A stretch of 64,000 bases of DNA, from contig NC_057718.1 of assembly GCF_004010195.1 (NCBI RefSeq), positions 57,066,264-57,130,263 of the forward strand, written 5' to 3'. Positions 7,404-53,955 of the stretch are shown here, in pieces. Numbering within the stretch: the stretch's first letter is position 1; each line of letters opens with the position of its first letter. The stretch comes from Chiloscyllium plagiosum (lineage: Eukaryota). The notes beneath the pieces were generated by a model that saw nothing but the letters and a program-made list of their open reading frames with translations, searched no databases and was not told the origin of the DNA. Both the position numbers and the translations under genes were made by a program.

Positions 7404-7528
7404 ATCATGAACGTGCAAAGCGACATCAAAGACTCTGTGTGCCCGTCAGCCAAGTCTTAATGTTCTGTGCATAGTAGTCACCGTACACATTTTCCAAGGA
7501 TGCCTGGATATGTCTCAATACATTCAAT

Positions 7529-7746
7529 GAGAGAAAGTGAGGGCTGCAGATGCTGGAGATCAGAGCTGAAAATGTGTTGCTGGAAAAGCGCAGCAGGTCA
7601 GGCAGCATCCAAGGAACAGGAGAATCGACGTTTCGGGCATAAGCCCTTCTTCAGGAATTCCTGAAGGGCTTATGCCCGAAACGTCGATTCTCCTGTTCCT
7701 TGGATGCTGCCTGACCTGCTGCGCTTTTCCAGCAACACATTTTCAG
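7529..7746. mobile_element. Palindromic mini Penelope-terminus insertion (family A), 15-bp TSD
   Basis: TSD CTCAATACATTCAAT at 7514-7528 and 7747-7761. Two ~90-bp inverted arms meet at GAATTC (7655-7660). Confidence 0.9.
7627..7654 (-). ncRNA. Minimal hammerhead ribozyme core (family A)
   Basis: Minus strand reads CUGAAGA-A-GGGC(UUAU)GCCC-GAAA-CG-UC. Helix I is short or weak; activity is untested. Confidence 0.6.
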
Positions 7747-8439
7747 CTCAATACATTCAATCCCAATATAAGTATTCTCAAACTTTATCCTTCCATCGGA
7801 TAGCAATTGGATCAGAGCCTACCAGAAATTACAAACTATGTAAAGTGTGGTCACCACAACCCACTGGGGTACCAATAAGGCGAGCTTGAAGTATACAGGA
7901 TAGAGGATGAGAGGATGTCTAGCCTCTGTGAAGCAAGACCTAGATGACGGAAGAGATATCAATCAGCTTGTACTCCTCAGTCAGATGCTCACAGAAAAGA
8001 CAATGAATAATGGTTGACACCCCTGCTCCTGTGACAATTAGGCACAATGCTTCTCTTTTGTCAAGTTTCACACTCATTCCAGGGTAGGTCTTTATTACTA
8101 TACATAAGATTGAGTATCATCTCAAGGAAAGTATTCCACCCAACCTGGCTCCTGGTGTGAGGCACCATTAGATTAACACTTGGTGAGAAGGAGAGCCCTT
8201 TCTACTGGACAGGTTCGTTGTGCCTGATGGCAGTGATGGCAGTACTGTCAATGTATCTACCTTTTTATACATTAGTGCACATATTCTGATAGAGTGCCTT
8301 TATTTCTGTCTTTTTATCATGTTTGAAATCTCCAGCCTTCTCTGCTTAGATTTGAATGCTCAGTCCATTTCTGCCACAAATTATCAATTCCATTATTGCC
8401 ACTTTGTGCTCTTGCCATGTACTTTGCCTTTAATTGAGC

Positions 8440-8860
8440 TGTAGGGAGAGGCTGGGACTGTTTCCCATGGAGTGATGGAGGCTGAGGGGTGTCTTTACAG
8501 AGGTTTATAAAATCATAGTAGGGTAAATAGACAAGATCTTTTCCCTGAGGTAGGAGGTCCAGAACTAGAGGGCATAGGTTTAGGGTGAGAGAGAAAAGAC
8601 TTAAAAGGGACCTAAGGGGCAACCTTTTCATGCAGAGGATGGTGCGTGTATGGAATGAGCTGCCAGAGGAAGTGGTGGAGGCTGGTACAATTACAACATT
8701 GAAAAGGCATCTGCATGGGTACATGAATAGGAGGTGTTCAGAGTGATATGGGCCAAGTGCTGGCAAATGAGGCTAGATTAATTTCGGATATCTGGTTGGC
8801 CTGGATGAGTTGGACCAAAGGGTTTTGTTTCTATGTTGTATATCTTTATGACTCAATGCT
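8440..8860 (+). mobile_element. CR1 LINE 3' end
   Basis: Encodes LGLF..E.RRLRG.L.EVYKI...RGHRF...RGNLFMQRMVRVWNELP, followed by the CR1 3'UTR. Confidence 0.85.
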
Positions 8861-9129
8861 CTAAGACTCCAATTTATCACATCTTCTTTTATTTGATTCC
8901 TGAGCCCACAATTTGGTCTAAAGCCCTTTCTGCTCTCCTAGTTACTCATCCCAGCAAAACCGTGAACACGGTTTAGGCAAAGACTTTCCCAACAGTATAG
9001 TTCCCAGTTCCCCTAGTGCTGGTGACAGCACCCCTGACTTGTAACCTATTTCTTTCTTATCAATCTTTGAGCCACAAATCTAACTCTATAATATGAATTA
9101 TCAATTTATTCCAATTTGTTTGTGGCTCA

Positions 9130-9350
9130 GCTAATAATCCAGAGATGTTACCTTTGAGGTTCTGCTTTTTAATTTAGTCCCTAACTCCTCATACCCTATC
9201 AGCAGAACCATATCATTAGTCCAGCCTATGTCTTCAGTACCTACATTGACTACAGCAACAGGATCCTGCCCCATCCACAAGTTCCTCTTCAACTCAGAGA
9301 AAATGTTCCAAACCTGGCACCAGCCAGCCAAAATAGCCTTTTAGACACTT
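9130..9350 (-). mobile_element. CR1 ORF1 (SGNH-esterase-like) remnant
   Basis: ORF 9131..9331(-) PVAVVNVGTEDIG...YEELGTKLKSRTSKV resembles the CR1 ORF1 motif VVHVGTNDIG. Confidence 0.6.
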
Positions 9351-10747
9351 GCTCTCAGCTGCAGAAGACTACGCCTATCCCCTTGATTATACTCTCCACC
9401 ACTACTACTACATTTCAAGTAGCTCCTCCTGCATGAATGGTTTCCTCTACAACATTCCATGCTCAGTTTAATCTACTGTCTGGTAGCTCCCACACTTGTC
9501 CATTCAGGCTTCAATAATCTCAAACCTTTTGGGCAACTGTGAGGTCTGAGACTGCTCCACTTCTATTGTCTTGATCCTGTTATCTGCCTCATTGACAGTC
9601 ATATCCTCCTATATCTAACCATGAACTAAATGATATGAAACAAAATACCAAAATGACATTCTCCCTCCTGTTGTGTTGCATTGACTGCAGGTTGACCTCC
9701 ACAACAATAATTATGAGAGTAATTTCCACCAGCATAGACATTTACTACAGATATATTTACCTTGGATCATTTAGGCATCTGTGAGTTCCTACATTCTGCA
9801 ACTGCCATGCATCACCTACTCTGCAATCTTCATAGCATCTAATTAATTCATTATTTACTACTTAAATCTTAAATAATGTTTCATCTAGACCTTCCTATGC
9901 TTATTTTCTTCTAATTTCAACAATTGCTTTCTTACCTAATGGGAGTTAGTCTTTTTTTGTCTTGAGGTCCTTCTCTCTATTGCTCTATTAGGCAGGCTGC
10001 TGTCATACTCTGAGTCTTTCTTTTCCCTCTCTATCGAGTGTTGTTGTTTTCTATCTCCAGATCTTCTCTCTTTCATTCTTTAAGGTGGAACATAGGCGTT
10101 GTTAGCTGGCCAGCTTTTATTGCTCATCCCTAGTTGCCTTTAAGAAGGTGGTGGTGAACATCCATGGATGAACCAGGAAATCCATTGCCGACTGAAGACC
10201 AGGCCTATGCCGTTCAAGTCTGATGACCCGGAACTTTACAGGAAATTCAGAAATGACTTCCAAGAGGCAAAACTGGACAAAGTTAGAGACCCAAACTAAC
10301 GACATGGACACCACCATCTGTGGCAATATATGACATAACGAGCTATAAAAGGAAGCAGAACAGAATAGCAGACAAAAATACAACCATCCATGATGCACTG
10401 AATGTATTTTACACTTAGTTTGAACAGAAGGCTAGTGAATTGGTATCACCAGCCCCAACAGTTTTGGATGCACCTATTCCCTTAGTCACCGCTGCAGACA
10501 TCAGATTGGCATTCTTGAGAGTGAACCCACTGAAAGTGACTGGCCCAGATGGAGATCCGGCCGTGCCCTCAGATCCTGTGTGGACCAGCTGGAGGAAGTA
10601 TTCTCTGACATCTTTCACCTCTCCTTGTTAGAATCTGAAGACCCCACCCGCTTCAAGAGGATCACTATCATCCCGGTATCAAAAAGAACACATACAACAT
10701 GTCTCAATGACTACCACCTGGTGGTTCTGACCTCCATAATCATTAAG

Positions 10748-11276
10748 GAGAAAGTGAGGTCTGCAGATGCTGGAGATCAGAGCTGAAAATGTGTTGCTGG
10801 AAAAGCGCAGCAGGTCAGGCAGCATCCAAGGAACAGGATAATCGAAGTTTCGGGCATAAGCCCTTCTTCAGGAATGAGGAAAGTGTGTCCAGCAGGCTAA
10901 GATAAAAGGTAGGGAGGAGGGACTTGGGGGAGGGGCATTGGAAATGCGATATGTGGAGGGAGGTCAAGGTGAGGGTGATAGGCCGGAGAGGACCTGCATG
11001 TCCTTGGTGGAGTGGGAGGGGTAGTTGAAGTGTTGAGCCACGGGGTGGTTGGGTTGGTTGGTCCGGGTGTCCCAGAGGTGCTCTGTGAAACGTTCCGCAA
11101 GTAGGCGGCCTGTCTCCCTAATATAGAGGAGGCCACATCGGGTGCAGCGGATGCATTAGATGATGTGTGTGGAGGTGCTTCTATATCCGCCACAAATTCA
11201 CCCGCCCGAAACGTCGATTCTCCTGTTCCTTGGATGCTGCCTGACCTGCTGCGCTTTTCCAGCAACACATTTTCAG
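10748..11276 (-). mobile_element. Truncated Penelope-like element (family A): GIY-YIG fragment between inverted termini, 16-bp TSD
   Basis: TSD CTCCATAATCATTAAG (10732-10747) / CTCCATAATTATTAAG (11277-11292). The internal minus strand encodes CTRCGLLYIRETGRLLAERFTEHL (GIY-YIG). A hammerhead-like core lies at 10844-10871(-). Confidence 0.85.
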
Positions 11277-11424
11277 CTCCATAATTATTAAGTGCTTTGA
11301 GAGGTTAATCATGGCTCAATACAACTCTAGCTTCTCAGCCTGCCTCAATCCCTTGCAATTTGCCTACCAGTGCAACAGTTCCATGGTAGATGCCATCTCT
11401 CTGGCTCTACATTCATCCCTGGAA

Positions 11425-14400
11425 GTCACACAATACCAGGTTATAGTCCAACATACAAAAACATTTCAAATAAACCTGTTGCACTATAACCTGGTGTGTT
11501 GTCACTTCTGACCTTGTCCACCCCAGTCAAACACCAGCACCTTCACATCATGGCTATCTTCAACACCACAAACTATCAGCTCAAAGTGGAAAGGATCTCC
11601 AAAATGATTGCGCATATCAACACAGACATCAAGTTTCTGCAGAGATGCATGAAAGCAGAGAAGATCCAAAAAGGACTACAGATTATGAACCCAGTGAAGT
11701 TGACCGACAGCAAAGACTGCGCTGAGAGGCACTACTGCCACACCTCTCGCACACTCCGCAACCATACAGTAGACAGCTGAACAGCTCTACAGTAGACACC
11801 TGAACTTTGAAATCGAGGTAGTCTCCATATTCTCAGCTTGTGCTCAGGATACACTGGACTAGCAATAAGACACTGCCAAGCAGACGAGGCAATGGAACTA
11901 TGCCAGCTGCATGCACAACAGGAAGAGGAAATTGGAAAATCTTGGCATCACCACAAGAAGTAATCAAGCCTCCCCTGGTACCACGGTTGAAACCAATACC
12001 ACCACTGGGAAATCCATTGTTAACTTGTCTGAACACACCCTTCAACCAGATTAAATCAAAGTTCTCAGCCAAGGGCTTAATTTCTGCCCCACTACCAAAA
12101 TTGATCCTATTGGTCTTGCAGCAGAAACAGAGGAATTCATCAGATGAATGAGGCTGCAGGAATTCTTCCACAAACCTCAAGATGTCAGCAGCAAGCCCAA
12201 AAAGACAATCAGTGAACCAGAATAGTCGACACAGAGATCCACAATGCAGTGACCAAAGGAGAAAGAGTTGAATTGGACCCCTCTAGAAGGCCACTGCCCT
12301 TGGCTCATCATGTATGCTCAAGTCATCAGGAGATAATACCGGATTCACAAGATAGTGCAGAATGTCACCCAAGCACAATGCAATGCCATCTATGCTCTCA
12401 AGACCAATCACAACATCGTCATCAAACCAACAGACAAAGGAACAGCCATCGTCATACAGAATAGAATGGATAACTGCAAAGAATTGTATCAATAACTGAA
12501 CAACCAAGAACACTACAGACAATTACCTGCCGATCCAACCAAAGAACACACCCGATAACTCAACAGACTGATCAAGACCTTTGATCGAGACCTTCAGAGT
12601 ATCTTATGCATTCTCATCCTGTGTACTTCTTGCATAGGAGACTTCTACTACCTTCCGAATATACACAAAATCAGCACACCAGGACGTCCCATCATACCAG
12701 GCAATAGGATCCTATGTGAGAACCTAGCTATTTTGAGGGCATCTTGAAACCCATTGTACAAGGAACCCCCAGCTTCTGTCATGACACTACAGACTTCTTA
12801 CAGAAACTCAGCACCCATGGACCAGTTGAACCAGGAACATTCCTCATCACAGTGGATGTTTCGGCACTCTACACTAGCATCCGCCATGACGATGGCATTG
12901 CAGCAACAGCCTCAGTACTCAATACCAACAATTGCTAATCTCCGAGCATCATGCTACAACTCATCCACTTCATCCTTGACCACAACATCTCCACCTTCAA
13001 CAACTAGCTCTTCATCCAGACACATGGAACAGCCATAGGAATCAAATTTGCAACTCAATATGCCAACATTTTCATGCACAAGTTCAAGCAAGACGTCTTT
13101 GCTGCACAGGACCTCCAATCAATTCTATACATCAGATACATCGAAAGCATTTTCTTCCTTTGGACACATGGTGAGGAATCACTGAATAACTGCACAATGA
13201 AAGCAACAAGTTTCATCCCACCATCAGACTTACCATGGTCTACTCTTAGAATCAGCCTCATTCTTGGATGCACACATTTCCACCGAGGACAGACACCTTA
13301 GTTAAAGAGGCCATACTCTATGGACAAGCCCTGAATATACACAAGATCTTCTCAGACGAGGAGAAATGCAATGGACACCTAAAAACCCATAAGAACAGGA
13401 TACGATGTTCAACTCACTGATTGGCAGATCCGACGTGCACAGTGAAAAACCAAAAAGACCTACTCAGAAGACAGAAACAGGATATGACTGACAGTGTACC
13501 CTTCGTCATCCAGTACTTCCCTGGAGTGGAGAAACTATGCTTTGTTCTTTGCAGCCTTCAACATGTCATTAATGACGATGGACATCTCACCAAGATCTTC
13601 CCTATGCCTCTACTTCTCGCCTTCAAACAACCGCCAAACCTTAAACCGACCATTGTTCGCAGCAGACTACCCAGTCTTCAGGACAATATTGACCACAATA
13701 CCACATAACCCTTCCACGGCAATCTCTGCATGATATACCAGATCATCGACATGGATACCACCATCACACGTGGGAACATCACCCACCACGTACATGGTAA
13801 ATACTCATGTAACTTGGCCAATATTGTATACCTCATACGCTGCAGGCAAAGATGCCTCAAAGCATAGTATATTGATGAGACTATGCAGATGCTACGGTAA
13901 CACATGAATGGATACTGTGTAACAATTGCCAGGCAGGAATGTTCCTACCCGGTCAAGGAACACTTCAGCAATCAAAGATATTCAGCCTCCGATCTTTGGA
14001 CAAGCATCCTCCAAGGTGGCCTTCGAGATACACAACAATGCAGAATCGCCGAGCAGAAACTGATAGTCAAGTTCTATACCCATGAAGATGGCCTTAACCA
14101 TGATCTTGGGTTCATGTCGTGCTGCATGTAACCCAACCATACTGTTCTGTACAGTACCTGTAATTTCTTTTAGATTTAGAATACATTCCCTACAGTATGG
14201 AAACAGGCCCTTCGCCCCCACAAATCCACACTGACCCTCCAAAGAGGAACCTAACTAGAACCATTTATCTCTGACTAATGGGCAATTTAGCATAGCCAAT
14301 TCACCTAACTTGCACATCTTTGGATTGTGGGAGGAAACCGGAGCACCTGGAGGAAATCCACACAGACACAGGAAGAATGTGCAAACTCCATACAGGCAGT

Positions 14401-14950
14401 CGCTGAGGCTGGAATTGAACCTGGGCCCTAGTGCTGTGAGGCAGCAGTGCTAACCACTGAGACATCGTGCTGCCCCTAAAAAAGTCCTTACTGTCCTGTT
14501 TTGATACCATCACCTTGATGACTTGTTATGATCTCTCTACATTAATTAGTTTGTATAGTTTTGGATTACTTCTTACTTTGGTTAGGCCCTTGGTATGCAA
14601 CCATATTCCTATAATATATTCAAGCTATTTGTTTTTTTTTCCAGCACCACCTTATTTTTAATTGTTTGTAATTATCTCTCAGCCTCAATTAATCAGATTA
14701 TACTTCATCCCTTCACTTGCTATTCAGCTGTTGACATTTTACTCACACCATCTGAGACTTTTGATCACCTGCAGAGACTTATTATTCAGCCTGTCGACAA
14801 TCCATTCACACCATTTGTACAATCTTTTGATCTCTCTGCCTTTAAATCCTGCGTCTGTGTCCTTCTCTTCACTCCACCTTTTGGACTATAACCTGATGTT
14901 GTGTGATTTCTGACCTTGCCCACTCCAGTCCAACACTGGCACCCCCACAT
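11425..14950 (+). mobile_element. Near full-length but pseudogenised Penelope-like element (family C) with pseudo-LTRs
   Basis: RT motifs: VIKPTDKGTAIVI, LKPIVQGTPSFCHDTTDFL, LITVDVSALYTSI, YANIFM, YIRYIESIFFLW. A GIY-YIG region lies at ~13800-14130. Direct repeats occur at ~11478-11550 and ~14881-14950, with an inverted copy at 11425-11452. TSD CATCCCTGGAA (11414-11424) / CATCCCTGCAA (14951-14961). Confidence 0.85.
14172..14475 (-). mobile_element. V-SINE (HE1-like) inserted in the Penelope 3' region
   Basis: tRNA-like head, V-domain and tail as in the copy at 2987-3337. Confidence 0.85.
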
Positions 14951-16280: not shown

Positions 16281-16462
16281 AGATGGAAATGTGTTGCTGG
16301 AAAAGCGCAGCAGGTCAGGCAGCATCTAGGGAACAGGAATCTGAAGAAGGGCTAATGCCCGAAACGTCGATTCTCCTGTTCCCTAGATGCTGCCTGACCT
16401 ACTGCGCTTTTCCAGCAACACATTTCCATCTCTGATCTCCAGCATCTGCAGACCTCACTTTC
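16281..16462. mobile_element. Inverted mini Penelope-terminus insertion (family A), perfect 16-bp TSD
   Basis: TSD TCCATCTACATAGAAG at 16265-16280 and 16463-16478, with inverted arms. Confidence 0.9.
16341..16368 (+). ncRNA. Minimal hammerhead ribozyme core (family A)
   Basis: CUGAAGA-A-GGGC(UAAU)GCCC-GAAA-CG-UC, enclosed by the element's inverted arms. Confidence 0.6.
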
Positions 16463-19204: not shown

Positions 19205-19580
19205 GTGATTACAAGATTTTTAAGAACTTATATAGGTTTATAAAATCATGTGGGGCACAGATAAGGTGAATAGCACAGCTCTTATCCCTAGGGCATAATT
19301 TTAAGGTGAGGGGAGAAAGATTTAAAAGGGACCTGAGGGACAGCTTTTTCACAAAGAGAGTGGTTTGTATGTGGAATGAAGTGCCAGAGGAAATGAAAGA
19401 TGTAGGTACAGTTACAACATTTAAAAGACATTTGGGCAAGTACATGAATAGGAAAGGTTTAGAAGGATAAGTGTCAAATGCAGACAAATGGGACTTGTTT
19501 ACTTTGGGAAACTTGGTTAGCATGGACAAGTTGTACTGAAGGGTCTGTTTCTGTGCCTTGTGACTCTACGACTCCATAAG
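19205..19580 (+). mobile_element. CR1 LINE 3' end
   Basis: EVYKIM...RGHNFKVRGERFKRDLRDSFFTKRVVCMWNEVP followed by the 3'UTR. Confidence 0.8.
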
Positions 19581-21748: not shown

Positions 21749-21912
21749 AGGAGAAAGTGAGGACTGCAGATGCTGGAGTTCAGAGCTGAAAATGTGTTGC
21801 TGGAAAGCGCAGCAGGTCAGGCAGCATCCAAGGAACAGGAGAATCGAAGTTTCGGGCATAAGCCCTTCTTCATTCCTGACCTGCTGCACTTTTCCAGCAA
21901 CACATTTTCAGC
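21749..21912. mobile_element. Inverted mini Penelope-terminus insertion (family A), perfect 14-bp TSD
   Basis: TSD TCCATTCTTATCCA at 21735-21748 and 21913-21926. Confidence 0.9.
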
Positions 21913-22423
21913 TCCATTCTTATCCATCCAGTTGTAGCAATTGAATTTACAGCAATGGTTTATTTTCCTACTTTGGAATAGTTACTTTCTGGAGTCTATC
22001 CTTAGCCTCTTCTAATTTTACACCAAGTACTGCAAATGGATGGTATGATCGAAAATACTATTTCAAATTTTATGTATGTACTGGTGATATCCAGTTCTGT
22101 CTCATTGCTACCTTTCTTATCTTCCTCCACTGCATTGTATAATCTCTGTCATCCAGTGAATTTGATTAACTGAAATTTTCTTCATTTAAATATTTTGTGT
22201 CTACAAAGGGCTCAATGTTCTGGAAGTTTCTTGCCGAATGTCTCTCTCAAATTCTGTCGTCTTATAAGAAACTCCTCAATACTGACCAACTCCTTTGGTC
22301 ACCTGTTCCAATATCATCATCTGTTTGTCATTGTTGTTATTTAGTCTGCTAAAATTTCTGTGAAGCATCTTCGAATATTTTACAGCTTTGACTTTACCAT
22401 ATAAATATATGTTAATATATATT

Positions 22424-25899: not shown

Positions 25900-26776
25900 A
25901 GATGCAAAAATGCCATCCCGTATTCCCAATTCCTCCGCCTCCGCCGTATCTGCTCCCAAGAGGACCAGTTCCACCATAGAACACACCAGATGGCCTCCTT
26001 CTTTAGAGACAGCAGTTTCCCTTCCCACGTGGTTAAAGATGCCCTCCAACGCATCTCATCCACATCCCGCACCTCCGCCCTCAGACCCAACCCCACCAAC
26101 CGCAACAAGGACAGAACGCCCCTGGTGCCCACCTTCCACCCTACCAACCTCCGCATAAACCAAATCATCCGCCGACATTCCCCCCACCCCCAAACAGACC
26201 CCACCACCAGGGATATATTTCCCTCCCCACCCCTCTCCGCCTCCAAACAGACCCCACCACCAGGGATATATTTCCCTCCCCACCCCTCTCCGCCTCCAAA
26301 CAGACCCCACCACCAGGGATATATTTCCCTCCCCACCCCTCTCCGCCTCCAAACAGACCCCACCACCAGGGATATATTTCCCTCCCCACCCCTCTCCGCC
26401 TCCAAACAGACCCCACCACCAGGGATATATTTCCCTCCCCACCCCTCTCCGCCTCCAAACAGACCCCACCACCAGGGATATATTTCCCTCCCCACCCCTC
26501 TCCGCCTTCCGCAAAGACCGCTCCCTCCGTGACTACCTGGTCAGGTCCACGCCCCCCTACGACCCACCCTCCCATCCTGGCACTTTCCCCTGCCACCGCA
26601 GGAACTGTAAAACCAGCGCCCACACCTCCTCCCTCACCTCCATCCAAGGACCTAAAGGAGCCTTCCACATCCATCAAAATTTTACCTGCACATCCACTAA
26701 TATCATCTATTGTATCCGTTGCTCCCGATGCGGCCTCCTCTACATTGGGGAGACTGGGCACCTCCTAGCAGAGCGC
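25900..26776 (+). mobile_element. Penelope-like element fragment (family A-like), RT C-terminus to GIY-YIG
   Basis: CKNAIPYSQFLRLRRICS, RTPLVPTFHP and FTCTSTNIIYCIRCSRCGLLYIGETG. Runs into an N gap at 26777-26794. Confidence 0.85.
26190..26507. repeat. Six tandem copies of a 53-bp unit
   Basis: CCAAACAGACCCCACCACCAGGGATATATTTCCCTCCCCACCCCTCTCCGCCT repeated with period 53. Confidence 0.92.
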
Positions 26777-29700
26777 NNNNNNNNNNNNNNNNNNTGCTCT
26801 TCCAGCACCACTGATCCAGAAACAGGAGGTTGGAGACTGGGCAGTGGACCTGCTGTGCGTGGGTGAAGTGCCCAAGCCAGTAGCACTTGTGGATTTCCAT
26901 CCTTCCCCTAATTCCATTTCCCAAATCTTTGCCCACTCACTTAACCCATCTATATTCCTCTTTAATATCTGAAAGTGCTCTTCATAACTTACCCTCCTAT
27001 CTATTTTTGCATCATCAGTAAATTCAGCAACCATATCTTCAGGCCTTTCATCAAGTAATTTATTTAAGTAATAAAACATTTGAAGTTCCAGCACTGAGCC
27101 CTGCTGCATCATTCTTAGCATCAAAAGGTAACAAGAAAATTACTAGATACCAATAAATCATCAAAAGTTGTGAGTCGTGGCCCAAAATCCCTAATCAGGG
27201 TCAGAAATTTTATTTCTGATGTTGATCAGATTAAACAAAAAACTCTTACATTTTGATAATTTCTGGACTGGAGATTTCTAAATAAAGGCCTTCTATTACA
27301 ACCTGTCCAAGTATTCCCAAATCCAGCACAGGAGATAAATCGCATAAAATCACACATGCTTTTACAGCACTGAGTGCCCATATTCGTAGAATTTAAATGC
27401 CCAGCAGACACTTTGAATGCTACTGTAAAAAGGCAAGTATGTAAGTTAAGTGAGGGTTAGGGTTGGAGGTGGGTGGGAGAGGCTAAGGTGCAGGAGGGTA
27501 AGAGGATAGGGTGCTAAATTGAAAGGAGGCTTTAGAGACTAAATGGACAAGGTGCCTGTGATCCAAATTAAATGGATGGGTATGAAGTTTGACTGGGAGT
27601 GTTAGGTCAGATTTGGGAGTGGCTTTTTGGTTTGGAGTTTGTGGAGTGTCAGGTCCTATGATGTTGAATCAGAGGGGTGGATCCTGCCAGGTCAGGGAGA
27701 GCAGGAGGTTTGGGTGATCAGTGTAAAGCGATATAGTAGTGTCGGGTTGAGGCTGGTGAGTGTCAGAGATCGAGGAATGTCAAGAATTGGTGGGGAATTT
27801 AGTTGTGGGGTGTCAGTGGTAAGTCAATGGTTTAATTTAATTTGCCATGAATTAGAGCACATTTATAATTATTTAACTTTTCTTGAGTGATATTAAGTTT
27901 AAGAAAGACAGAATACTCTGTCTTGTTTTTGAGGTCCAGACTGACCTCAAAATTGGAGTGTTGCATTTGTTGGGGTTAGAAGTTGGGGTTAGAAACCAGG
28001 CAAAAATTGAGGGGACTGCAAGATTTCAAGGTGGATTAGGCAGAAAGTCTACCTGCGGACTCCAACACTATATCCAAAAATTACATAAAAAGAATAAAAC
28101 AGAAAAAAATTCTTCTGCACTCTGCACTACATCCCCATTGCCTCCAAACAGGCCCCATATTGATCAATGCCAACTTAATGCTTTCTATCCATTTTCATAA
28201 TGCTTAATATCCTTGCTACCCGTCTACCCATTTTCTATGGCAACTCAAACCACCTACATCATCCTATCCTCCTCTACTCATCCCACAAACTGCCTCATAT
28301 CCCCTATTCTAACTTACTGTCTACTCAAGCCAATGCATGTTTTTTCCTACTATCCTTTCCCCTTCACCATGGCAAATCAGCCAGCATCCATTTGTACCAG
28401 TGCACACAAAAGAAAAAAAAAGTTCTATATATTAAAATTCCATAATGCAGACTACATTGAGAAAAATATTTCTCATTTATAAAATTTACTTTTTTACTTC
28501 TTCTCACTCAGTTCTCATACTTCTCAACAGCCCTTGACACATCTAACAGGCGTTTACACACATTTTACAGTACAATCTTCTCTACTATTAATAATCCATT
28601 AGACACCAAATGTCCTCCCCCACAAAGTTACCCAACCCTTTAAGTGTACCTTAATTCCCCAGAAAGAGTACCCTGTCACTGCAAAGTATACCAGACACCT
28701 TCTGCAAAGTTGTCTCAGGACCACATCCATAGGGGTCTTTATTTGGCTATCCAATCAAACCCACAAAATTTAGACATGCTCTTCACAGCTCTATGTGCAC
28801 GTTCCAGGTTCCCTGCCATAGTATTGCTAAAATCCTAATTCAGTGGTCAGCTGCCGCCATAAAACTTGCATACAAATGTATGAAATAGGGGCAGAAGGAG
28901 ATAATTTAAGCCTTCTCAACTTAAGTCTTCTCCAAAGTTTAATAAGATCATGGCTGATTTGTTTGTGTTTTGAATTTCAAATTACCATATTACTCCAACA
29001 GCCTGAAATGCTTGTTAGATAAAGGAATAAATCTATCTCTGCCTTAAAAACAATAGTAAATAATCTTTTCTCCACTGCTTTGAGGCTGAGAGTTCTAAAT
29101 TGACACGACCTTTTGACAGAAAAACTTCTCCTTAACTCTGCCCTAAAAGAGAGGTGCCTAATTTTAAAATATGACTCCTCATTCTGAACTTACCCACAAG
29201 TCTCATAATCCCTACATCCATTTTGTCAAGGCCAGTCAGGATATATTACACTTCAATGAGTCACCTCTTCTTCATCACAACATACTTTCTTACCTGTTTT
29301 GGTATCGTCAGAAAACTTTGCCACCATGCCTTCCCTTCCCTCATCTAAGTATTGAGATAAATTTTAAGAAGTTGAGGCCCAGCAAGGACTTCCATTCATT
29401 ACATCTTGTCAATCAGACAATGACCAGTTTTATAACCCGTCTGCTTGGCCAGCAGAAAACAATCTTCTATCCACATGAGTCATAAACCCAACCATATGCT
29501 TTACATGCGCAATTCCCAGCCTGATTCCATCGCTGTCGCCAAGAAAATGTGAAATGTCATATTCAGGAGCAGAACTTCTGATTTCAGGCTACTTCGAATC
29601 ATACTTCCTCACCACAATAATAAAAATTCAACCTAAATGTCAATAATGCAGAGTTATCTGTATTGCTAGAAAATTGAAATCATCAGCTACTTGTGATGTT

Positions 29701-30165
29701 GCAATATGGAAAAAGAACTGAACTGCTTTGACACTTATTTCATAGTCTTTCAAAAATGACAGCTACCATTAAAAAGGCAGATTAAGTTATATGCAGGTTA
29801 ATAATAAATGAATAAACTTTTTTCAAGCAAATACCACCTTCTTAGTGAACACAGCTATTACTGTGAACCTACTAAAGCCATAAATAACTGAATGGTGCAA
29901 TTATCCTTGTGTCCAATGGTTTCCCTCTTTCTTTTGATGTGTACCAATGTCAAGTATTGATTGATTGACCGCTTCTTGGCCAGTGTGATGAAGAGCTTAT
30001 GCTCAAAATGTCGATTCTCCTGTTCCTCAGGTGCTGACTGAGCAGCTGTGCTTTTCCAGCATGACACTTTTTGACAGTGTGCTGTTAAACTTAACATTTT
30101 CAAAGTAGATGCCTTCAAAACAATTTCAATTGAGATTATTGGCGTGGATTGCCCTAGTTTCACAT

Positions 30166-30256
30166 CGCTGAAAATGTGTTGCTGGAAAAGCGCAGCAGGT
30201 CAGGCAGCATCGAGGGAACAGGAGAATCGACGTTTCGGGCATAAGCCCTTCTTCAG
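30166..30256 (-). mobile_element. Single-arm family A mini insertion with intact hammerhead core at 30229-30256(-)
   Basis: Flanked by TTCACAT at 30159-30165 and 30257-30263. The minus strand begins CTGAAGAAGGGCTTATGCCCGAAACGTC. Confidence 0.8.
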
Positions 30257-32111: not shown

Positions 32112-32235
32112 TCTTCAGGCTCATGCCCGAAATGTCGATTCTCCTGCTCCTTGGATGCTGCCTGACCTGCTGTGCTTTTCCAGCAACACATTTTCAGCTC
32201 TGATCTCCAGCATCTGCAGTCCTCACTTTCTCCTC
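32112..32235 (+). mobile_element. Family A mini insertion, perfect 16-bp TSD, hammerhead core truncated
   Basis: TSD CTTCCATCACTTCACT at 32096-32111 and 32236-32251. Confidence 0.88.
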
Positions 32236-41390: not shown

Positions 41391-43567
41391 AATAGAAGAT
41401 GTATTCCATTAGCCTTCTTAATTATTTGCTGTGCAAGCATTCTAACCTTTAACAACTCATGCACTAGAACACCTAGATCCCTCTGCACCTTTCAATTCTG
41501 TAAGTTTTCACTATTTAAGTAATACTTTTTTTGAATTTTCTCACATAATACTACTCCGTCTGTAGGTTTCTACCTACTCACTCAATCTATCTATAATCCA
41601 TCTGCATCCTTCTTATGTTTTCCCCATAACATACTTTATAACTATCTTGGCATCATGTACAAATCTAGCTACTCTGATTCCTCATCTAAGTCATAGAGTC
41701 ATACAGCATGGAAACAGACCCTTTGGTCCAACTAGTCTGCGCCCATCATGTTCCCAAAATAAACTAGTCCCAGCTGCCTCCATTTGGCCCATGTCCCTCC
41801 AAACCTTTCCTATTCATTTACTTATCTAAATGTCTTTTAAACATTGTAACTGTACCTGCATCCACCCCTTCCTCTGGCAGCTCATTCCACATACAATTTA
41901 TATAATTGAGAGAGTATTTAGTATCAAATAGAGGGTGCAGCACAGATCCCTGCAAGACCCAACTCACCACAGCCTGCTGATCAAATAAAGAACCGTTTAC
42001 GCATATGAGCATAAGAACTAGGGGCAGTAGGCGGCAGTTCAGCCTTCTGAGTCTGCTCTACCATTTGAATGATGGCTAATCTTTTGTCACCTTCAAATTC
42101 ACTTTCCTGCCCGGTCTCCGTAACCTTTTGACTATTCTTAATTAAAAATCTGTCTATCTCTTGCTTAAATTGCATACTGTCTGTTTTCTGACAGTCAGTC
42201 AAACTTTTATCCTTGCCAAGATGTCACCTCCAATAGCATGAGCTCCTACTTTGAGCACTAAGAACTTTTTGTCTGGCATCTTGTCAAATCCTTGCTAAAA
42301 TCCAAGTGCAGTACATCAATCGGCTCCCTGCTAACCACTGCAAATGAATTGGTTAAACTTGATTTCTCTTTCGCAGAGCCATGCTGATTCGATTGTCTTG
42401 AATTTTTATAAGTGCTCATTTATAAACTCTAATGTTGATTCTAACATCTTTCCCATGACAGATGTCAAATGAACCTTCTTGCCAGTCTAAGAAAATTTTA
42501 TCAGTATCAAACCAACTGGAAAATTAACATCAACACACCTATTACTTGATTAACCACCTCTTTTAAGATTCCAGGATAAAGTCCACTAGGAACTACAGAC
42601 TTATCAACCAACAGTTCTATGAATTTGCTCAGTATTGCATCCCAGTGATTATAATTTTACCATGTTCCTTGCTTCCTTTAAGCTCCTAGCTCACAAGAAT
42701 TGCTGCAATGTTTTTGCACCTCTAAAGTGAAAATTGAAGCATGATCGCATCCTCCATTTCTTTATTTTTTGGTATTAACCAACTGTTTTTACCTTCTAGA
42801 GATCCAAAGAACCTGTTGCTAGAAACATAAAACAGATAGCGAGCTTTCTCTTATTTTCCAGTTTATTTCTTCTGTTTAACACTGTTTAACAATGCTGTTC
42901 ATTGTATTCCGACTAATCATCTGAAATGCCACTCACCTTTGTACAATTATCTGTTTTTTTTGATGCTCTCCCTAATCTGTTTAGTTAACCATAGATAATG
43001 GATCACCATTGGAATTTTTCTTTATAGTAGGAATGTACTACTCTGAAATATCCTTTAAAATGTCACTGCTTCTCTACTGACCTATCTCTAGCTTAATATC
43101 AGCTTTCATGTCAACATAATTGCCCTTTTTTAAAAGTTTAAAATACTAGTGTTAAACCACTTCTCCACTGTCAACTAGATGTGAAATTCAACCAAGAGAT
43201 GCCTTGGCATTGAGGTTATTAATCAATCCTGTCACATTACACAATACCAAATGTGACGGTGCTGTAACTTTATCAAGGTTATTTTGTTCTTAGGTTTTCT
43301 TTCTGCCAAAATGTCTACTTTAGTAATGGCAGGGGAGTGGCCAGTTCTCTCAGTTCAGGTTTTTTCTAGTTTGGTTTACTTGCAGCAGCTGCTGGTAGCT
43401 CTAGCAGAAGCTGCTGCAGTCAAAAAAGGTTCCATACTTCAGTCAATGATCATTGACTGACTTTTCTCTCTGAAATCTCTCCTGCCTGTAAGATCTGTTT
43501 TTTGAATTTACCTTTTGCCAATTGTTTATGGGATAGTATGGGAATTGGAACAGCTCCATAGTTAAGT

Positions 43568-44190
43568 TGCTGGATCAAGCAGACAAATCTCGTCCAGAAA
43601 CCCTAGCCACTCTCCCCTACACCAAAGAAATCTCGGAAATGACTGCCAGACTACTCAGACCCCTTGGCATCATGGTAACCCACAAACCTACCAACACACT
43701 AAAACAGCAGCTAATGAACTTGAAAGATCTTATACAGACAATGAACAAAACTAATGTCATTTACAAAATACCGTGCAAGGACTGTAACAAACACAACATT
43801 GGATAAACAGGCAGAAAACTAGCCACCAGGATACATGAACACCAACTAGCCACAAAAAGACATGACCCTCTCTCACTAGTATCCTCACATACTAATGAGG
43901 AAGGACACCATTTCGACTGGGACAACACATCCATCCTCGGACAAGCCAAACAAAGACACGCACGAGAATTCCTATAAGCATGGCATTCCAATGAACTCTA
44001 TCAATAAACATATCGAGTTAGACCCCACCTACCACCCCCTGAGAAAAGGAACAGGAAATGACTTCACCACAGGAGATGACATCACCAACCCAAAGAAACC
44101 CAAACATATAAATAGAAAGCAGGAATTTTCAGCATTGCTTCTCCTGAGGCTCACTGAAGATGTTACCTAGTAGGGTAACGAAATGTCTGG
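43568..44190 (+). mobile_element. Penelope-like element 3' fragment (family B)
   Basis: ATLPYTKEISEMTARLLRPLGI...NVIYKIPCKDCNKHNIG, homologous to 22424-23137. Confidence 0.88.
44151..44190 (+). ncRNA. Minimal type I hammerhead ribozyme (family B)
   Basis: UCA-CUGAAGA-U-GUUACC(UAGUAG)GGUAAC-GAAA-UG-UC-UGG. Confidence 0.68.
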
Positions 44191-45059
44191 ATATCAGATC
44201 CATATTCATTCAGTACTGCATGTGCTATCAATTTAGTTGTGAATAGTTCATGTATTCAGATGCAAAACCTTCAGCTTCTTTTGTTATTTTTTTAAGCATG
44301 TAGTCTTGACTACTGGTACATTCTTTGTCTTTTTCTCACAGGGCATAATGAGCAATTTTCCACATTATTGGGTAGATGCCAGAGTTGTAGCTGCACTGGG
44401 TCAGAGTGATTTAGGGTGCAGCTAGCATTGGTGAACAACTCTTTTTAGTACCAATGCCAGAATATTGTCAGGATCCACAGCCTTTGCACTATCCATGTTA
44501 GATTTATAAAAATGATCGAAGACTGGTAACTGTGATGTCAGGGATCTCAAAAAGAGGAAGCTGGGATTGATCATCTATTTGGCTCATCTGACTGAGTATG
44601 GATGCAAATGCTTCAGCCTTTTGTGGTGTTGTACTGGGCTTTGCCATGATCAAAGATGGTAATATATTTTCAGTTAGTTGTGAGTTGTTTAAATGTTCAC
44701 AACCATGTGAATGAATGTTACAGAACTGCAGAGTTTGGATCTGATCCATTGGTTATGGGTTAATGTTATCATCCCATACATGCACTCTCACACCTTCCCT
44801 CTCTCCCTGGTGCTCTCCCCCTCTCTCTAGCACACTTTCTGCCCATCTCTTTTACACATTGGCATTGAAGAGGAAAAGGGCAGCGGGTGGAAGTGGGAAA
44901 TAAGTTAGCATAGGGATTTGAGAATTAATGGGCAATAGGGTATTAGGTTACAAGGGTGGGGCATAGGGTACGTGTCAGTGTGATGATGGTAAGAGAGGTG
45001 AGGGCTGGAGGAATGCTTTATTCCCTTCTGGGGATGCAAGCTATACCTTTGAATCTGGT

Positions 45060-45502: not shown

Positions 45503-45730
<228 letters not shown>

Positions 45731-46919
45731 TAAATGTTTCAAGGTAATACGTTGACTGCTAGGACTGATATTTTGTGAAATGCACATTTTCTGTAAGATG
45801 GTAAGAACATGAAGTAATTGGCACATTTTTTCATTATTATAATTTTGGTTTTCATTAAATACATTTTCTCTTGCTCTGTGCAAAGGATTACTCCTTTAAG
45901 AAAACCCTTGTCCCAGAGAACTGAAGCATGATTTTCACAAAATATCTGCTGGTGTGAATAAGCAACTTTTTATTCTGTTGATTAGTTCACAGAAATTGCT
46001 TTGATCATGAAACACCCTCACAACTGGACTAAACGCCTGACTGTCGGACGTTGCCAGCTTTGCGAAATGAAGTTTAACAGGATATTGAAATGTTCAGAAT
46101 CAGCAAACAGAGCAGATCTCAATTAAACAATTAAACATTATGCTTGCAGATGCTATTCAGAAACAATACTATTTGGAAATGCCGTTTGCTTTCCATTGTA
46201 TGACATCTGTGTTACAAAAATTATGCATCAATTGGCTAATCCTTCACTACACCACATCATCCAGCCAAGTATGTGATCGCAGGCTAATCTTAACTCTGGA
46301 TTTGTCAGATCCCAGAACAAAGCCTGGCTTGATGGATCCTAACATTGTTACTTATCTACTATGGAAGTCAATAACTGAACACATTCACAAGTCTGTAAAT
46401 ATTTAAGGAAATATTCACCCAGTAAAGAAAGATTCTGACGTTCCAGGATGGAAGAGGGAAACAGGGAAGATTCTGATGCGTACGAACTGTTTTGGGTTTT
46501 TTTTTTGTCTGAACTCAACTTTGTAGCCTTGAGGGTAATCCTTCCCTTTACGGCATTGTGGGTAAACTGTCAGAACATGGATTGCAGTGGTTCAAAAAGG
46601 CAGCTCAACACCATCTAGGGCAACAAGGGATAGGCAATAAATGCTGACCAGCCAATAATGTCCACATCACATAAGTGAATAAAAAAAACATTGTAATGAC
46701 TGCCCACTCAGATGAGAAACCTCAGTTCATTAAGATTCTGACAGAATACCCACAAATCATTATACCCCTGGGTGAGTAGATTGAACTGGCTATATTTTTT
46801 ATTCGTTCTCTTCTCACCTTTGTTGGTCACAGGGAGTCCATTCCTCATGGATAGCTTATCCAGTTCCAGTGTAGTTATGCTTTCTAAAGAGCCAATCTAA
46901 CCAGCCTTTTTTTTTCCTT

Positions 46920-47215
46920 TGGCCCAACAAGTCCACACTGACCCTCTGAAGAGTAACCATTCAGACCCATTCCCCTACCCTGTTATTCTACATTTACCCT
47001 GACTAATGCACCTAACCTGAACACTATGGGCAATTTAGCTTGGCCAATTCACCTTACTTGCACGTCTTTGGACTGTGGGAGGAAACCGGAGTACCCAGAG
47101 GAAACCAACAAAGACATGGCAAGCATGTGCGAACTCCACACAGACAGTTGCCCGAGGCTGGAATTGAACCTGGGTCCCTGTGAAGCAGCAGTGCTAACTA
47201 TTGAGCCACTGTGTC
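46920..47215 (-). mobile_element. V-SINE (HE1-like)
   Basis: Same head and V-domain as the other copies. Confidence 0.82.
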
Positions 47216-47917
47216 TTTCTTGGGTTAAGGAAGGAATGAGTTTAATAAAATACAAGAAAAAGATAATAATATGGAACACAGAAACGAGGAATGAGGAAAT
47301 ACATAATAGTTAGAAAAAAGATATATGAATCAAACTTTGGCTTATCCATGGAGAAATGTTGCTGCATTAAGTTAGGTCATTCCATTCGTGCTAACCTCAG
47401 CAGTTGAGCATTTGGTGTGAAGATTGTTGGTTCTCCAATTTACACAAAAGAGTTGTCCTTTTCCCTTTTCAGTGGTGCTTTGCTAATTTGTGACTCAAGA
47501 GTCATAGAGCTGTACAGCATGGAAACAGACCCTTCGGTCCAACTCATCCATACCGATCAGATATCTCAACCCAATGCAGTCCCACCTGTCAGCACTCAGC
47601 CCATCACCCTCCAAACTCTTCCTATTCATCTATTCATATGGGTGCCTTTTAAATGTTGCAATTGTACTAGCCTTCACCACTTCCTCTGCCAACCCATTCC
47701 ACAGACGCACCACCCTCTGCATGAAACATTGGCCCCTTAGGTCTCTCTTATATCTTTATCCTCTCACCCTAAACCCATACACTCTAGTTCTGGACCCCAG
47801 CCGTCACCCCCACCTCCAAGGAAAAGGCTTTGTCTATTTACTCTATCCATGCCCCTCATGATTTTGTAAACCACTATAAGGTCACCCCTCAGCCTATGAT
47901 GCTCCAGAGAAAACAGC

Positions 47918-48139
47918 TGAAAATGTGTTGCTGGAAAAGCGCAGCAGGTCAGGCAGCATCCAAGGAGCAGGAGAATCGACATTTCGGGCATGAGCCCTTC
48001 TTCAGGAATGTTGGATTCCTGAAGAAGGGCTCATGCCCAAAACGTCGATTCTCCTGCTCCTTGGATGCTGCCTGACCTGCTGCGCTTTTCTAGTAACACA
48101 TTTTCAGCTCTGATCTCCAGCATCTGCAGTCCTCACTTT
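47918..48139. mobile_element. Palindromic family A mini insertion, 16-bp TSD
   Basis: TSD CTCCAGAGAAAACAGC (47902-47917) / CTCCAGGGAAAACAGC (48140-48155). The core is intact on - (47978-48005) and has GAAA>AAAA on + (48019-48046). Confidence 0.9.
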
Positions 48140-48900
48140 CTCCAGGGAAAACAGCCCTAGCTTATTCAACCTTTCCCTATAGCTCAAATCCTCCAATCCT
48201 GGCAACATCCCTGTAAACCTTTTTTGAACTATTCCAAGTTTCACAACATCCTTCCAATAGGACGGAGACCAGAATTGCATGCAATATTCCAAAAGTGGCC
48301 TAACCAATGTCCTGTACGGCCTCAACATGACCTCCCAAACTCCCAATAAATGAAAGCATCAAACGCCTTCTTCACTATCCTATCTACCTATGACTCCACT
48401 TTCGAGGAGCTATGAACCTGCACTCCAAGGTCTCTTTGTTCAGCAACACTCCCTAGGACCTTACCATTAAGTATATAAGTCCTGCTAAGATTTGTTTTCC
48501 CAAAATGCAGCACCTTGCATTTATCTAAATTAAACTCCATCTGCCACACCCTTTGGCCCATCTGATCAAGATCCCGTTGTAATCTGAGGTAATCTTCTTC
48601 ACCATCCACTACACCTCCAATTTTGGTGTCATCTGCAAACTTACTAACTATACCTCTTATGCTCACATCCAAATCATTTATATAAATGATGAGATGTGAT
48701 GGACCCTGCACTGATCCTTGTGGCACTGCACTGGCCACAGGGCTCGGGTCTGAAAAACAATCCTCCGCCACCATCCTCTGTCTTCCAGCTTTGAGTCAGT
48801 TCAGTATCCAAATGGGTGGTTCTCCCTGAGATCTAACTTTGTTAACCAGCCTCCCATGGGGAACCTTGTCGAACGCCTTACTGAAGTCCATATAGATCAT

Positions 48901-49116
48901 GGAGGAGAAAGTGAGGTCTGCAGATGCTGGAGATCAGAGCTAAAAATGTGTTGCTGGAACAGCGCAGCAGGTCAGGCAGCATCCAGGGAACAGGAGAATC
49001 GATGTTTCGGGCATAAGCCCTTCTTCCTGAAGAAGGGCTTATGCCCAAAACGTCGATTCCCCTGTTCCATGGATGCTGCCTGACCTGCTGCGCTGTTCCA
49101 GCAACACATTTTCAGC
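48901..49116. mobile_element. Palindromic family A mini insertion, 14-bp TSD
   Basis: TSD TCCATATAGATCAT (48887-48900) / TCCATACAAATCAT (49117-49130). Confidence 0.88.
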
Positions 49117-50843
49117 TCCATACAAATCATATCTACCGCTCTAACCTCATGAATCCTCTTTGATACTTTTTCAAAAAACTCAAACAAGTTTGTTAGACAT
49201 GATTTCCCACGTGCAAAGCCATGTTATCTATCCCTAATCAGTCCTTGCCTTTTCAAATACATGTAAATCCTGACACTCACGATTTCCTCCAACAACTTGC
49301 CCACCACTGATGTCAGGCTCGTTGGTCTATAGTTCCCTGGTTTGTCCTTACCAACTTTTTAAAGTAGTGGCACCACGTTAGCCAACCTCCAGACTTTCGG
49401 CACCTCACCTGTGACTACCGATGATACAAATATCTCAGCAAAAGGCCAAGCAATCACTTCCCTAGCTTCCCACAGAGGTCTAGAGTACACCTGTCCTGGG
49501 GATTTATCCACTTTTATGCATTTCAAGACATCCAGCACTTCCTCCTCTGTAATATGACATCCAGCACTTCCTCCTCTGTAATATGGACATTTTTCAAGAT
49601 GTCACCATCTATTTCCCGACGTTCTATATCTTCTATGTCCTTTTTCACAATAAACACAAATGCAAAATATTTGTTTAGTATCTCCCCCATCTCCTGCAGC
49701 TCCACACAAAGGCCGCCTTGCTGATCTTTGAGGGGCCCTATTCTTTCTCTAGTTACCTTTTTGTCCTTAATGTATTAGTAAAAATCCTTTGGATTCTCCT
49801 TAACTCTACTTGCCAAAGCTATCTCTCCTGATTTGCCCTCCTGATTTCCCTCTTAAGTACACTCCTATTGCCTTTATATTCGTCTAAGGACTCACTCAAT
49901 CTATCTTGCCTAAACCTGACATATGCTTTCTATTTTTTCCTCAATTTCTTTTGTCATCCAACATTCCCTACACCTACCAGCCTTTCCTCTCACCCTAACA
50001 GGAATATACTTTCTCTGGACTCTCATTACCTGATTTCTGAAGGTTTCCCAATTTCCAGCCATCCCTTTACCTTTGAACGTCTGCCCCCAATCAGCTTTTG
50101 AAAGTTCTTGCCTAATACCGTCAAAATTGTCCTTTATCCAAATTAGAACTTCAACTTTTAGACTTGCTTCTAGCAATCAGCAAGAGGGACTTTTTCTTTT
50201 GCTTGCAAGTATGGAGTGCCTCGTGAATGTTCTTCAGCTGTGAATTCACAGCATAAACCAGCCCATTTGAACTAAAACACTAGACTAGCACACTGTGAGG
50301 TCTGCATTGCAGTTGGTTTTGGAATTCCGTCTCTTAGAAATGCTTGCAAAGTCTTGTCAAATGTAAAAGGAACTTAAGAACAAAATGGTGAGAACTTTAT
50401 AGTGTTTTGGTGCAGATGAATCTGGGTGTCTTCATGCATGAATTGCAGAAAACTAGTATGCAGATACAGCAGGCAATAAGGAAGGCAAGTTAAAGTTTAG
50501 AATTTATTGTTAAAGGAGTATAAAAATAGGCGAGTGTTACTGCAACTGTACAAGGCATTAGTGAGAGCGCACCTGGAATAATTTTGGTCCCCTTAATTAA
50601 AGAGGGATGTAATTGTATTGGAGGTAGTTCAAAGGAGGCTTACTCGATTGATTCCAGATGGCCGGTGGGGGCTGGTGGTGTTTTTCACATGAAGAGGGAA
50701 TGAGAGCAAAGGCTTGTTCTGTCTAGTTTAGAAGAATGTGAGGAGATCTAATTGAAGTATATAAGATGCTGAAGGGGGTTGAACAAGTAGATATAGAAAG
50801 GATGTTTCCTCATTTGGGGCTGTCTAGCACAAGGGGTCATAAT

Positions 50844-53870: not shown

Positions 53871-53955
53871 CCACCTGGAAATGACACAACCAACTCTAGC
53901 AGACCGAGTCACATAAATAGTAAGCAGGACAGAACACCAGTGCTTCACTGGAGGT

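Follow-up and report, generated by a model that had tools for sequence, protein, structure and literature searches.

The stretch analysed here, referred to below as the window, is 64,000 nucleotides of the shark Chiloscyllium plagiosum (contig NC_057718.1, positions 57,066,264 to 57,130,263, forward strand), and what concerns us in it is a set of eight short, mostly hairpin-shaped insertions, 90-225 bases in size except for a longer one at 10748-11279, which are copies of the terminal module of an endonuclease-bearing Penelope-like element (PLE). A BLAST search of the module against the window returns 18 matches, and these take in all eight insertions and the three old copies that a preliminary description of the sequence had placed there; together the eight amount to 1761 of the 64,000 bases, or 2.8% of the window. 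In the list that follows, the sign after an arm is its element sense, hammerhead positions are counted from C3 of the core (which puts the predicted cut site at +28), and each pair of coordinates at the end of an entry is a target duplication.

7529..7749: two-armed copy; tailed arm 7529-7658 (-), tail-less arm 7657-7749 (+) with a 3-nt core deletion; 7514-7528 / 7747-7761, 15 bp
10748..11279: long copy within a fragment of a long interspersed element (LINE); tailed arm 10748-11178 (-), which extends into the endonuclease region, 25-nt inverted piece 11178-11202, tail-less arm 11204-11279 (+); 10732-10747 / 11277-11292, 16 bp with 1 mismatch
10748..10780, minus strand: tail of this copy, 33-34 nt, between two putative reverse-transcription start sites (PMC11167929)
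10844..10871, minus strand: minimal hammerhead region of this copy, with C3 at 10871, the predicted cut between 10844 and 10843, and the helix-III palindrome broken in the arm
10871..10877, minus strand: initiator-like motif of this copy, in which the A at 10875 is position -4, the place where arm ends and loose read ends pile up and a putative RNA start
10967..11155, minus strand: broken GIY-YIG endonuclease fragment with the CCHH cysteines and histidines retained
16281..16462: two-armed copy; short tail-less arm 16279-16340 (-), tailed arm 16341-16465 (+) with the core intact; 16265-16280 / 16463-16478, 16 bp
21749..21914: two-armed copy; tailed arm 21749-21872 (-), 40-nt tail-less arm 21875-21914 (+), with an apparent microhomology jump; 21735-21748 / 21913-21926, 14 bp
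30166..30256, minus strand: single tail-less arm that begins at C3, core intact; 7-bp duplication (weak)
32112..32235, plus strand: single tailed arm with a 7-nt inverted piece of adjacent template in front; 32096-32111 / 32236-32251, 16 bp
47915..48143 (the 47918 copy): two-armed copy in a LINE 3' region; tail-less arm 47915-48010 (-), 4 extra bases, tailed arm 48015-48143 (+); 47902-47917 / 48140-48155, 16 bp with 1 mismatch
48901..49118: two-armed copy inside a LINE reverse transcriptase (RT) fragment, arms joined by 3-nt microhomology; 48887-48900 / 49117-49130, 14 bp with 2 mismatches
265..392, plus strand: old copy of an older subfamily, 21% from the young majority
3601..3680, plus strand: old copy, 20% from the young majority
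29986..30072, plus strand: old copy, 25% from the young majority

Seven of the eight insertions are bounded by target duplications of 14-16 bp, and the earlier account of all eight as duplication-bounded is weak only for 30166 with its 7 bp. When the identical search was run at 300 random position pairs it scored at least 13 once, at least 8 nine times and at least 7 fourteen times, by which measure six of the duplications are well beyond chance, that of 48901 (score 8) is marginal and that of 30166 (score 7) is weak; for the three old copies (~265, 3601 and 29986) a duplication was looked for and none convincing was found. Excision of the insert together with one duplication restores LINE-type reading frames at 10748, 47918 and 48901, these three copies sitting in LINE sequence, whose assignment to the Rex1 and CR1 families is made from motifs rather than by a search. 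Young arms diverge from the majority sequence by 0-6.7% and old copies by 20-25%, and the two arms of the two-armed insertions differ from each other at 0/84, 2/76, 1/60, 1/39, 4/83 and 5/84 sites. The eight copies are thus of mixed age, only 7529 appearing very recent, and their placement among the youngest insertions of the region holds in a relative sense. As a separate observation, the plus strand has CCA within the first six bases of six of seven duplications (7529, 10748, 16281, 21749, 32112, 47918 and 48901), whichever way the tail points; this is in part homology to the element ends.

An inverted, 5'-truncated copy lies beside the direct terminus in six of the eight insertions. Among the seven non-coding ones, five have two long arms, 32112 having only its 7-nt inverted piece and 30166 none. 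The tail, of 33-34 nt or slightly more, stands on one arm in all six two-armed copies, as the earlier mention of an extra ~35-bp tail on one arm implied, and on one of the two single-arm copies. Each two-armed copy therefore pairs a tailed with a tail-less arm: one arm stops at a first site, its partner at the tip of the tail, a distance of 33-34 nt or slightly more, and the two sites match the pair of reverse-transcription start sites that delimit the tail of the anole element (PMC11167929). Were the arms to choose their ends independently at 50:50, such pairing in six of six would have a probability of 1.6%. Most arm ends have 2-4 bases in common with the target.

The parent element and its hammerhead

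Starting at its tail, the 10748 copy crosses the module and then about 95 bases of repeat upstream of it before entering a broken GIY-YIG gene, and the connection to such a fragment drawn in the preliminary description is borne out, the 10967-11155 segment being contiguous with the module and bearing the CCHH motif. The peptide of this segment is 88% identical to a protein named from Chiloscyllium punctatum and 57% identical to a full-length protein with both RT and GIY-YIG domains. An RT protein named from C. punctatum is 654 aa long, and 71 longer relatives (E<=1e-30) of the C. punctatum-named protein are mostly annotated with an RT domain; P0005 and P0010 have the RT (RVT_1) followed by GIY-YIG, which places the endonuclease C-terminal to the RT. 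The GIY-YIG Pfam score is above the cut-off for P0010 and below it for P0001 and P0005, and a Pfam search with four window peptides gave nothing significant. A cysteine linker between RT and endonuclease is present in the full-length relatives, partly present in P0001 and decayed at 26453-26773 of the window, and the 10748 copy ends short of this linker region. Linkers of the form CX2-5CxxC are described for the Neptune and Nematis clades and not for Poseidon (PMC8557442). Because the full-length relatives and a window fragment (25903-26777) carry the cysteine linker, we read the shark family as probably a Neptune-type PLE. The fragment in question was absent from the preliminary list:

25903..26810, plus strand: longer fragment of a related older subfamily, comprising the RT thumb, the linker, the endonuclease and, beyond a gap of 18 N, a module end

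It also holds six perfect 53-bp tandem copies at 26190-26507, which may be an assembly artefact or a slippage event. As a whole, the attribution of the copies to a PLE terminus, with an optional tail, inverted termini and insertion through RNA, is supported.

The module contains a minimal type I hammerhead, and in the parent clade this motif is conserved as a structure, a statement drawn from comparison of eight gap-free examples, because the core is invariant over differing flanks and stem I covaries. A minimal-hammerhead descriptor gave 20 matches in 80 related metagenome loci against none in 10 shuffles, and in the window 6 matches (four of them in the module family) against one in 30 shuffles. 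In the eight gap-free examples, which are those of the 20-plus motifs that align without gaps and stand for about one per family, stem I, lying outside the search descriptor, shows two-sided changes at all four pairs, and the covariation of stem II is partly circular. As for the inserted copies, their hammerheads are, to judge from sequence, mostly dead. The full core is intact in only four of 14 arms (7529L, 16281R, 30166 and 47918L), G12 has decayed at its CpG in two young arms, and the shark stem I, made of 2 bp, a U-U mismatch and 1 bp, is the weakest among 12 families compared. In fold predictions stem II is lost to the long hairpin in 7529 and 47918, the symmetric copies (probability 0.0), and persists in 16281 and 30166. 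The hammerhead proposed earlier for the module is therefore real as a covarying motif of the relatives and intact in a minority of the arms.

A search with Rfam models, which the preliminary description had suggested, gave 18 matches at E<=10, none to a hammerhead family and the only models being microRNA hairpins below their thresholds. Folded as monomers, five arms did not exceed their shuffles in stability (z -1.27 to 0.13), and a cofold of two copies did not yield the hammerhead dimer. Neither fold result speaks against a protein-assisted ribozyme; the ribozyme of the green anole PLE cleaves only when protein is present (PMC11167929).

Internal junctions and the making of the palindromes

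The internal junctions of the inverted copies all differ (6/6 in a comparison of the six copies of the window rather than a genome-wide count), and several of the contig joints listed (15 of 50 and 12 of 82) leave from -6..+1 toward varied partners. These and the other reads and contigs used here come from runs of other individuals or species; 3186 of 12,955,460 raw RNA records were aligned, 82 of them at least 99% alike, and they are used for architecture only, since they probably come from copies inside host transcripts or from DNA. On the junction test that had been proposed to separate truncation at each insertion from an independently mobile mini-element, the window therefore favours the former, the same junction being repeated in none of six cases, and the short insertions are very probably products that a PLE makes anew at each insertion. 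With the same 6/6, the interiors do not fit a miniature inverted-repeat transposable element (MITE), a class characterized by fixed terminal inverted repeats that reach both ends, a uniform interior and a short duplication of fixed length; in the shark copies the ends are offset by the tail and the duplications run from 7 to 16 bp, and this class was rejected.

The centres of several copies preserve a trace of how the arms may have been joined. In 10748 the arms are separated by 25 bases which, read in inverted orientation, match the sequence that three contig sets place directly upstream of the long arm's end, and a loose end at 11178 is present in all three sets. Because of this match, the cDNA of the short arm likely moved some 320 bases along an RNA that contained the endonuclease and landed at the stopping point of the other cDNA. 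In 21749 a 5-nt homology leads the 40-nt arm into the bases that immediately precede the end of the other arm on its upstream side, and in 32112 the second nick bears 7 bases of inverted adjacent template with the geometry seen at 10748; the centre of 16281 can be read in the same way. In each such case the tail-less side is the short, jumping one.

Two further explanations have to be weighed against these centres. In the first, the second arm would arise by fold-back self-priming of a single cDNA (or of an antisense RNA), as was proposed for head-to-head PLE repeats (PMC3846280), or else the copies would be retrozymes that move as cleaved circular RNA. Variants that both arms of an insertion have in common and that the majority lacks (four in 16281, two in 47918, one in 48901) would fit such an origin, and, because of these variants, each palindrome must come from a source of its own. 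Two contig joints at 10871-10874 'go back 93', which suggests rare head-to-tail dimers elsewhere in related genomes and is consistent with a retrozyme. Fold-back nevertheless leaves unexplained both the constant end of the second arm, at one fixed site with 2-3 nt of target homology, and the inverted piece taken from upstream of the first arm's end in 10748, and fold-back of one cDNA does not yield jump pieces. A retrozyme is contradicted by the absence of tandem arrays from the window (none of 11 tandem rows overlaps a module, whereas a non-LTR retrozyme consists of head-to-tail units, at least two of them with complete hammerheads, and the class was rejected on this ground), by at least 13 of the 14 arms not beginning at the cut site, and by the predicted loss of stem II in 7529 and 47918. 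We give this pair of possibilities very little credence, and the retrozyme-like half of the earlier interpretation falls with it.

In the second, tailed single arms with an internal promoter would form an independent mini-element resembling a short interspersed element (SINE), transcribed on its own and mobilised in trans, with the palindrome made at each insertion. The fixed 5' end fits this, as does raw-read cover of the module 29-fold above that of the endonuclease region, a ratio inflated by diverged subfamilies that align less well there; precedents exist in the internal promoter of D. virilis Penelope (PMC2377424) and in the non-autonomous PLE partners of Chlamydomonas (PMC8557442, PMC9977147). 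Against it, seven of the eight copies end at the tail tip, and the anole enzyme needs about 55 nt of RNA past the start site (PMC11167929), which by analogy a stub would lack, while in run X2 common sequence continues past the tail in 111 contigs (agreement 0.61); moreover, 10748 was copied from RNA containing the endonuclease, the core decays at CpG sites in copies, and a stub that replicated as a palindrome would not need the jump pieces. We consider a mini-element of this kind improbable, and per-insertion manufacture by the PLE is the reading carried forward.

Arm ends and the source of the short length

Nine of the 14 arms (7529L, 7529R, 16281R, 21749L, 30166, 47918L, 47918R, 48901L and 48901R) end between -5 and +2 from C3, some of the ends being blurred by up to 3 nt through junction homology, and the remaining five end at -307, +9, +16, +33 and +52. 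Counted by insertion, six of eight have an arm end in this interval (P 1e-4, or about 1.5e-3 when 15 possible intervals are allowed for, under a uniform null of our own choosing). Raw RNA read depth falls from 833 to 276 across the same point (3.0-fold), contig depth falls 2.2-, 1.8- and 2.6-fold in the three contig sets, and -4 is among the six places listed for loose ends of raw reads (98 reads, agreement 0.35). The A at -4 lies in a motif that fits YYANWYY, found at 1.2% of window positions, and TCAKTY, found at 0.18%. On the cDNA strand an extra C follows -4 in four of five informative cases (the read consensus, two listed contig joints and 47918R, the exception being 7529; P about 0.045, post hoc). 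A copied cap would give just such an extra base by analogy with L1, for which this signature has been described (PMC9341517). Because at least 13 of the 14 arms do not start at +28, the template appears to have been mostly uncleaved. The fixed end could in principle derive from a tract resembling a splice acceptor, which lies about 27 nt upstream of C3, but this origin was rejected: the arms stop at -4, and among the rows listed no raw-read joint reached the threshold for listing.

These observations can be assembled into a mechanism in which the short length is, on balance, best attributed to run-off of the cDNAs at the 5' end of the RNA, each insertion being built with its own junction at the time of insertion. 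The element's protein would nick the two target strands 14-16 nt apart, the duplications being observed and the enzyme suggested by the linked GIY-YIG gene; one nick would prime at the tail end and the other 33-34 nt upstream, where the ends and their pairing are seen in the copies and the start sites are modelled on the anole element. If the transcript started within the terminal repeat, just before the hammerhead, both cDNAs would reach the end of the RNA after about 96 or 130 bases; here the pile-up is the observation, and the RNA start and its cap are what we infer from it. The cDNA ends would then be united either through microhomology or after one of them had made a short jump to RNA immediately upstream of the other's stopping point, the pieces being visible and the jump a reading of them, and long arms such as that of 10748 would come from priming at a downstream copy of the sites on read-through RNA. 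The hammerhead is a feature of the parent element, and the inserted copies are likely dead on arrival. The arm ends are not random but cluster at one place, because of which 'extreme truncation', the term used for one of the two alternatives put forward at the outset, is probably not apt, even though that alternative, PLE products made per insertion, is the one that stands.

The competing account of the pile-up is ordinary 5' truncation from the 3' end of long RNAs, in which structure or protein would cause a stop, the enzyme tending to drop away after unwinding the hammerhead, so that ends would gather at the start of stem I with no RNA end involved. The pile-up does coincide with the 5' strand of stem I (-4..-1), and a Poseidon-type family in the window has a longer possible stem I and, in the only short copy found, a start about 11 nt ahead of C3; truncation has been given as the cause of very short PLE insertions, of median length 128 bp (PMC9977147), and 10748L is evidence that a long RNA can be primed at its 3' end. 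Set against this, the shark stem I is predicted to be weak (first pair probability 0.08-0.09), and neither the initiator-like motif nor the extra-C cases would find an explanation; we regard a structural stop as less likely than run-off.

Several points weigh against run-off on a single uncleaved template. At 47918L the final base, at -5, is the element's own, and 7529 lacks an extra base. A TATA-like element is not enriched upstream of the hammerhead (it occurs in 7 of 12 families, the null mean being 5.6; P 0.29), and in the shark family it matches at only 6 of 8 positions, although a clear TATA stands 37-47 nt before C3 in 2 of the 12 families and, by hand count, in the anole template printed in PMC11167929. 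A single-cell poly(A) RNA library shows no place where many molecules start or stop. The left arm of 16281 can be read as a jump to -4 or, equally well, as starting at +28 and having lost 2 nt, and a contig joint with a depth of 466, its kind not shown, leaves exactly at the predicted cut site (10843, +28); a fraction of the templates may thus be cleaved. At one site the two arms of 10748 differ from each other, and the variant recurs in 21749L; two templates or a recurrent change could lie behind this, and two templates fit better than one. The arm-end sample, finally, is of eight insertions. Among invertebrate relatives, the inverted arms reach well upstream of the hammerheads in L001, L018, L027 and L030 and stop near the hammerhead in L003, though these loci were selected for holding an RT and form no test of short copies.

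Related elements, known systems and what the copies may record

Remnants of Poseidon-type PLEs lie at 43550-44200 (+), 53877-54035 (+), 50844-50930 (-) and 22460-23090 (-); they have minimal hammerheads of their own (C3 at 44154 and 53959) with a clear TATA box 47 nt before C3, and the short copy at 50844-50930, beginning some 11 nt ahead of its hammerhead, has a repeat of about 15 bp on its flanks. The endonuclease fragment at 13787-14068 (+), 31% identical to P0001, represents a third PLE family, which is more distant. The invertebrate loci L001, L018, L027, L030 and L010 show long forms of the layout, with inverted hammerhead-bearing termini around an RT gene or with direct 201-bp repeats. 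Over 10748-11203, the two RNA-type runs have 395 listed places of change, of which 123 are A>G or T>C, and the two DNA-type runs have 298, of which 61 are (Fisher P 0.002), a comparison of non-independent places from different animals in which three of the four run types are guessed or unrecorded; A-to-I editing of hairpins may account for the excess. The window further contains two dispersed repeat families, one at 3000-3340, 14180-14480, 36000-36460, 46900-47220 and 59060-59320 and the other at 8560-8820, 19290-19570, 25244-25519 and 47497-47796, which look SINE-like and LINE 3'-end-like, and a GC-rich degenerate tandem array at 6644-7231 (periods 36, 78 and 114) that is possibly a repetitive coding exon.

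The nearest known layouts are the complex insertions of endonuclease-bearing PLEs, with an inverted pseudo-long terminal repeat (pLTR) and a tail of 30-40 bp (Arkhipova et al. 2013, PMC3846280; Craig et al. 2021, PMC8557442). The shark copies resemble these in their head-to-head inverted termini and one-end tail, in the target duplication and microhomology junctions, and in TATA- or initiator-like motifs in the pLTRs, and they differ in that their arms are typically the last 90-130 nt only, with no open reading frame between them and ends clustered at one position; their duplications are of 14-16 bp as against the 8-10 bp reported for rotifer PLE copies. The hammerhead is like those of metazoan PLEs (Cervera and De la Pena 2014, PMC4209133) in its core, the bulged base before stem II, the G-C first pair and a loop-less palindromic helix III, and unlike them in having the weakest stem I of the 12 families; the excerpts of that paper do not mention sharks, and it had already reported minimal hammerheads that stand alone or form pairs on opposite strands, 100-700 bp from each other. 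Non-LTR retrozymes (Cervera and De la Pena 2020, PMC7229834; Li et al. 2026, 10.64898/2026.07.22.740005), which occur in one chondrichthyan, are likewise non-coding, hammerhead-bearing and related to pLTRs, but they form head-to-tail arrays of complete ribozymes, whereas the shark copies are dispersed, head-to-head and mostly broken in the core.

The closest biochemical parallel is Poseidon_Ac (PAc) of the green anole (Frangieh et al. 2024, PMC11167929), for which both nicked strands were extended in vitro from two internal RT start sites, bounding a tail, on uncleaved RNA with a hammerhead about 100 nt upstream, shorter RNA 5' ends giving shorter products. PAc belongs to a different clade, the shark relatives carrying the cysteine linker, and in vitro its strands showed no difference in start site, in contrast to one site per arm in all six two-armed genomic copies; inverted stubs and the natural RNA 5' end are not discussed in the text of that paper covered here.

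Two mechanisms from other elements invite comparison. In L1 twin priming a second nick primes on the same RNA and gives an inversion, and retroviral strong-stop DNA is a short cDNA that extends to the RNA 5' end. Unlike the products of twin priming, both shark arms start at the element's paired start sites, giving a palindrome, and unlike retroviral strong-stop DNA the short shark cDNA would be target-primed and stays integrated.

The layout, the solo and opposite-strand minimal hammerheads and very short PLE insertions were all known already (PMC3846280, PMC8557442, PMC4209133, PMC9977147), and a claim of a new kind of mobile element does not stand. In a survey that covered few subscription papers and the anole study apart from its supplementary figures, no paper was found that describes the shark family or derives short PLE copies from run-off, and exact module patterns had 0 matches in each of the metagenome, viral and prokaryote collections searched. 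A search of sequencing runs listed no RNA run with the module, a result that has no bearing on expression. For annotation, automatic tools take such copies for MITEs or microRNA hairpins, and we advise that they be recorded as PLE ends.

The steps that follow priming remain unvalidated in the anole study. A more speculative proposal, which we hold to be somewhat less likely than not, is that the stubs are integrated 'strong-stop' cDNAs and the element's main product, with the hammerhead at the capped 5' end of the RNA, both nicks primed by a protein dimer at a coupled pair of internal sites, and the tail-primed cDNA displacing the other, which would re-anneal just upstream. If this were true, full-length copies would need tandem read-through RNA or strand transfer, and a single mechanism would account for the PLE tail, the inverted termini and the tandem requirement, readable from very many genomic junctions. 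Short, duplication-bounded insertions that make up 2.8% of a window constitute a large natural record of the steps of PLE insertion.

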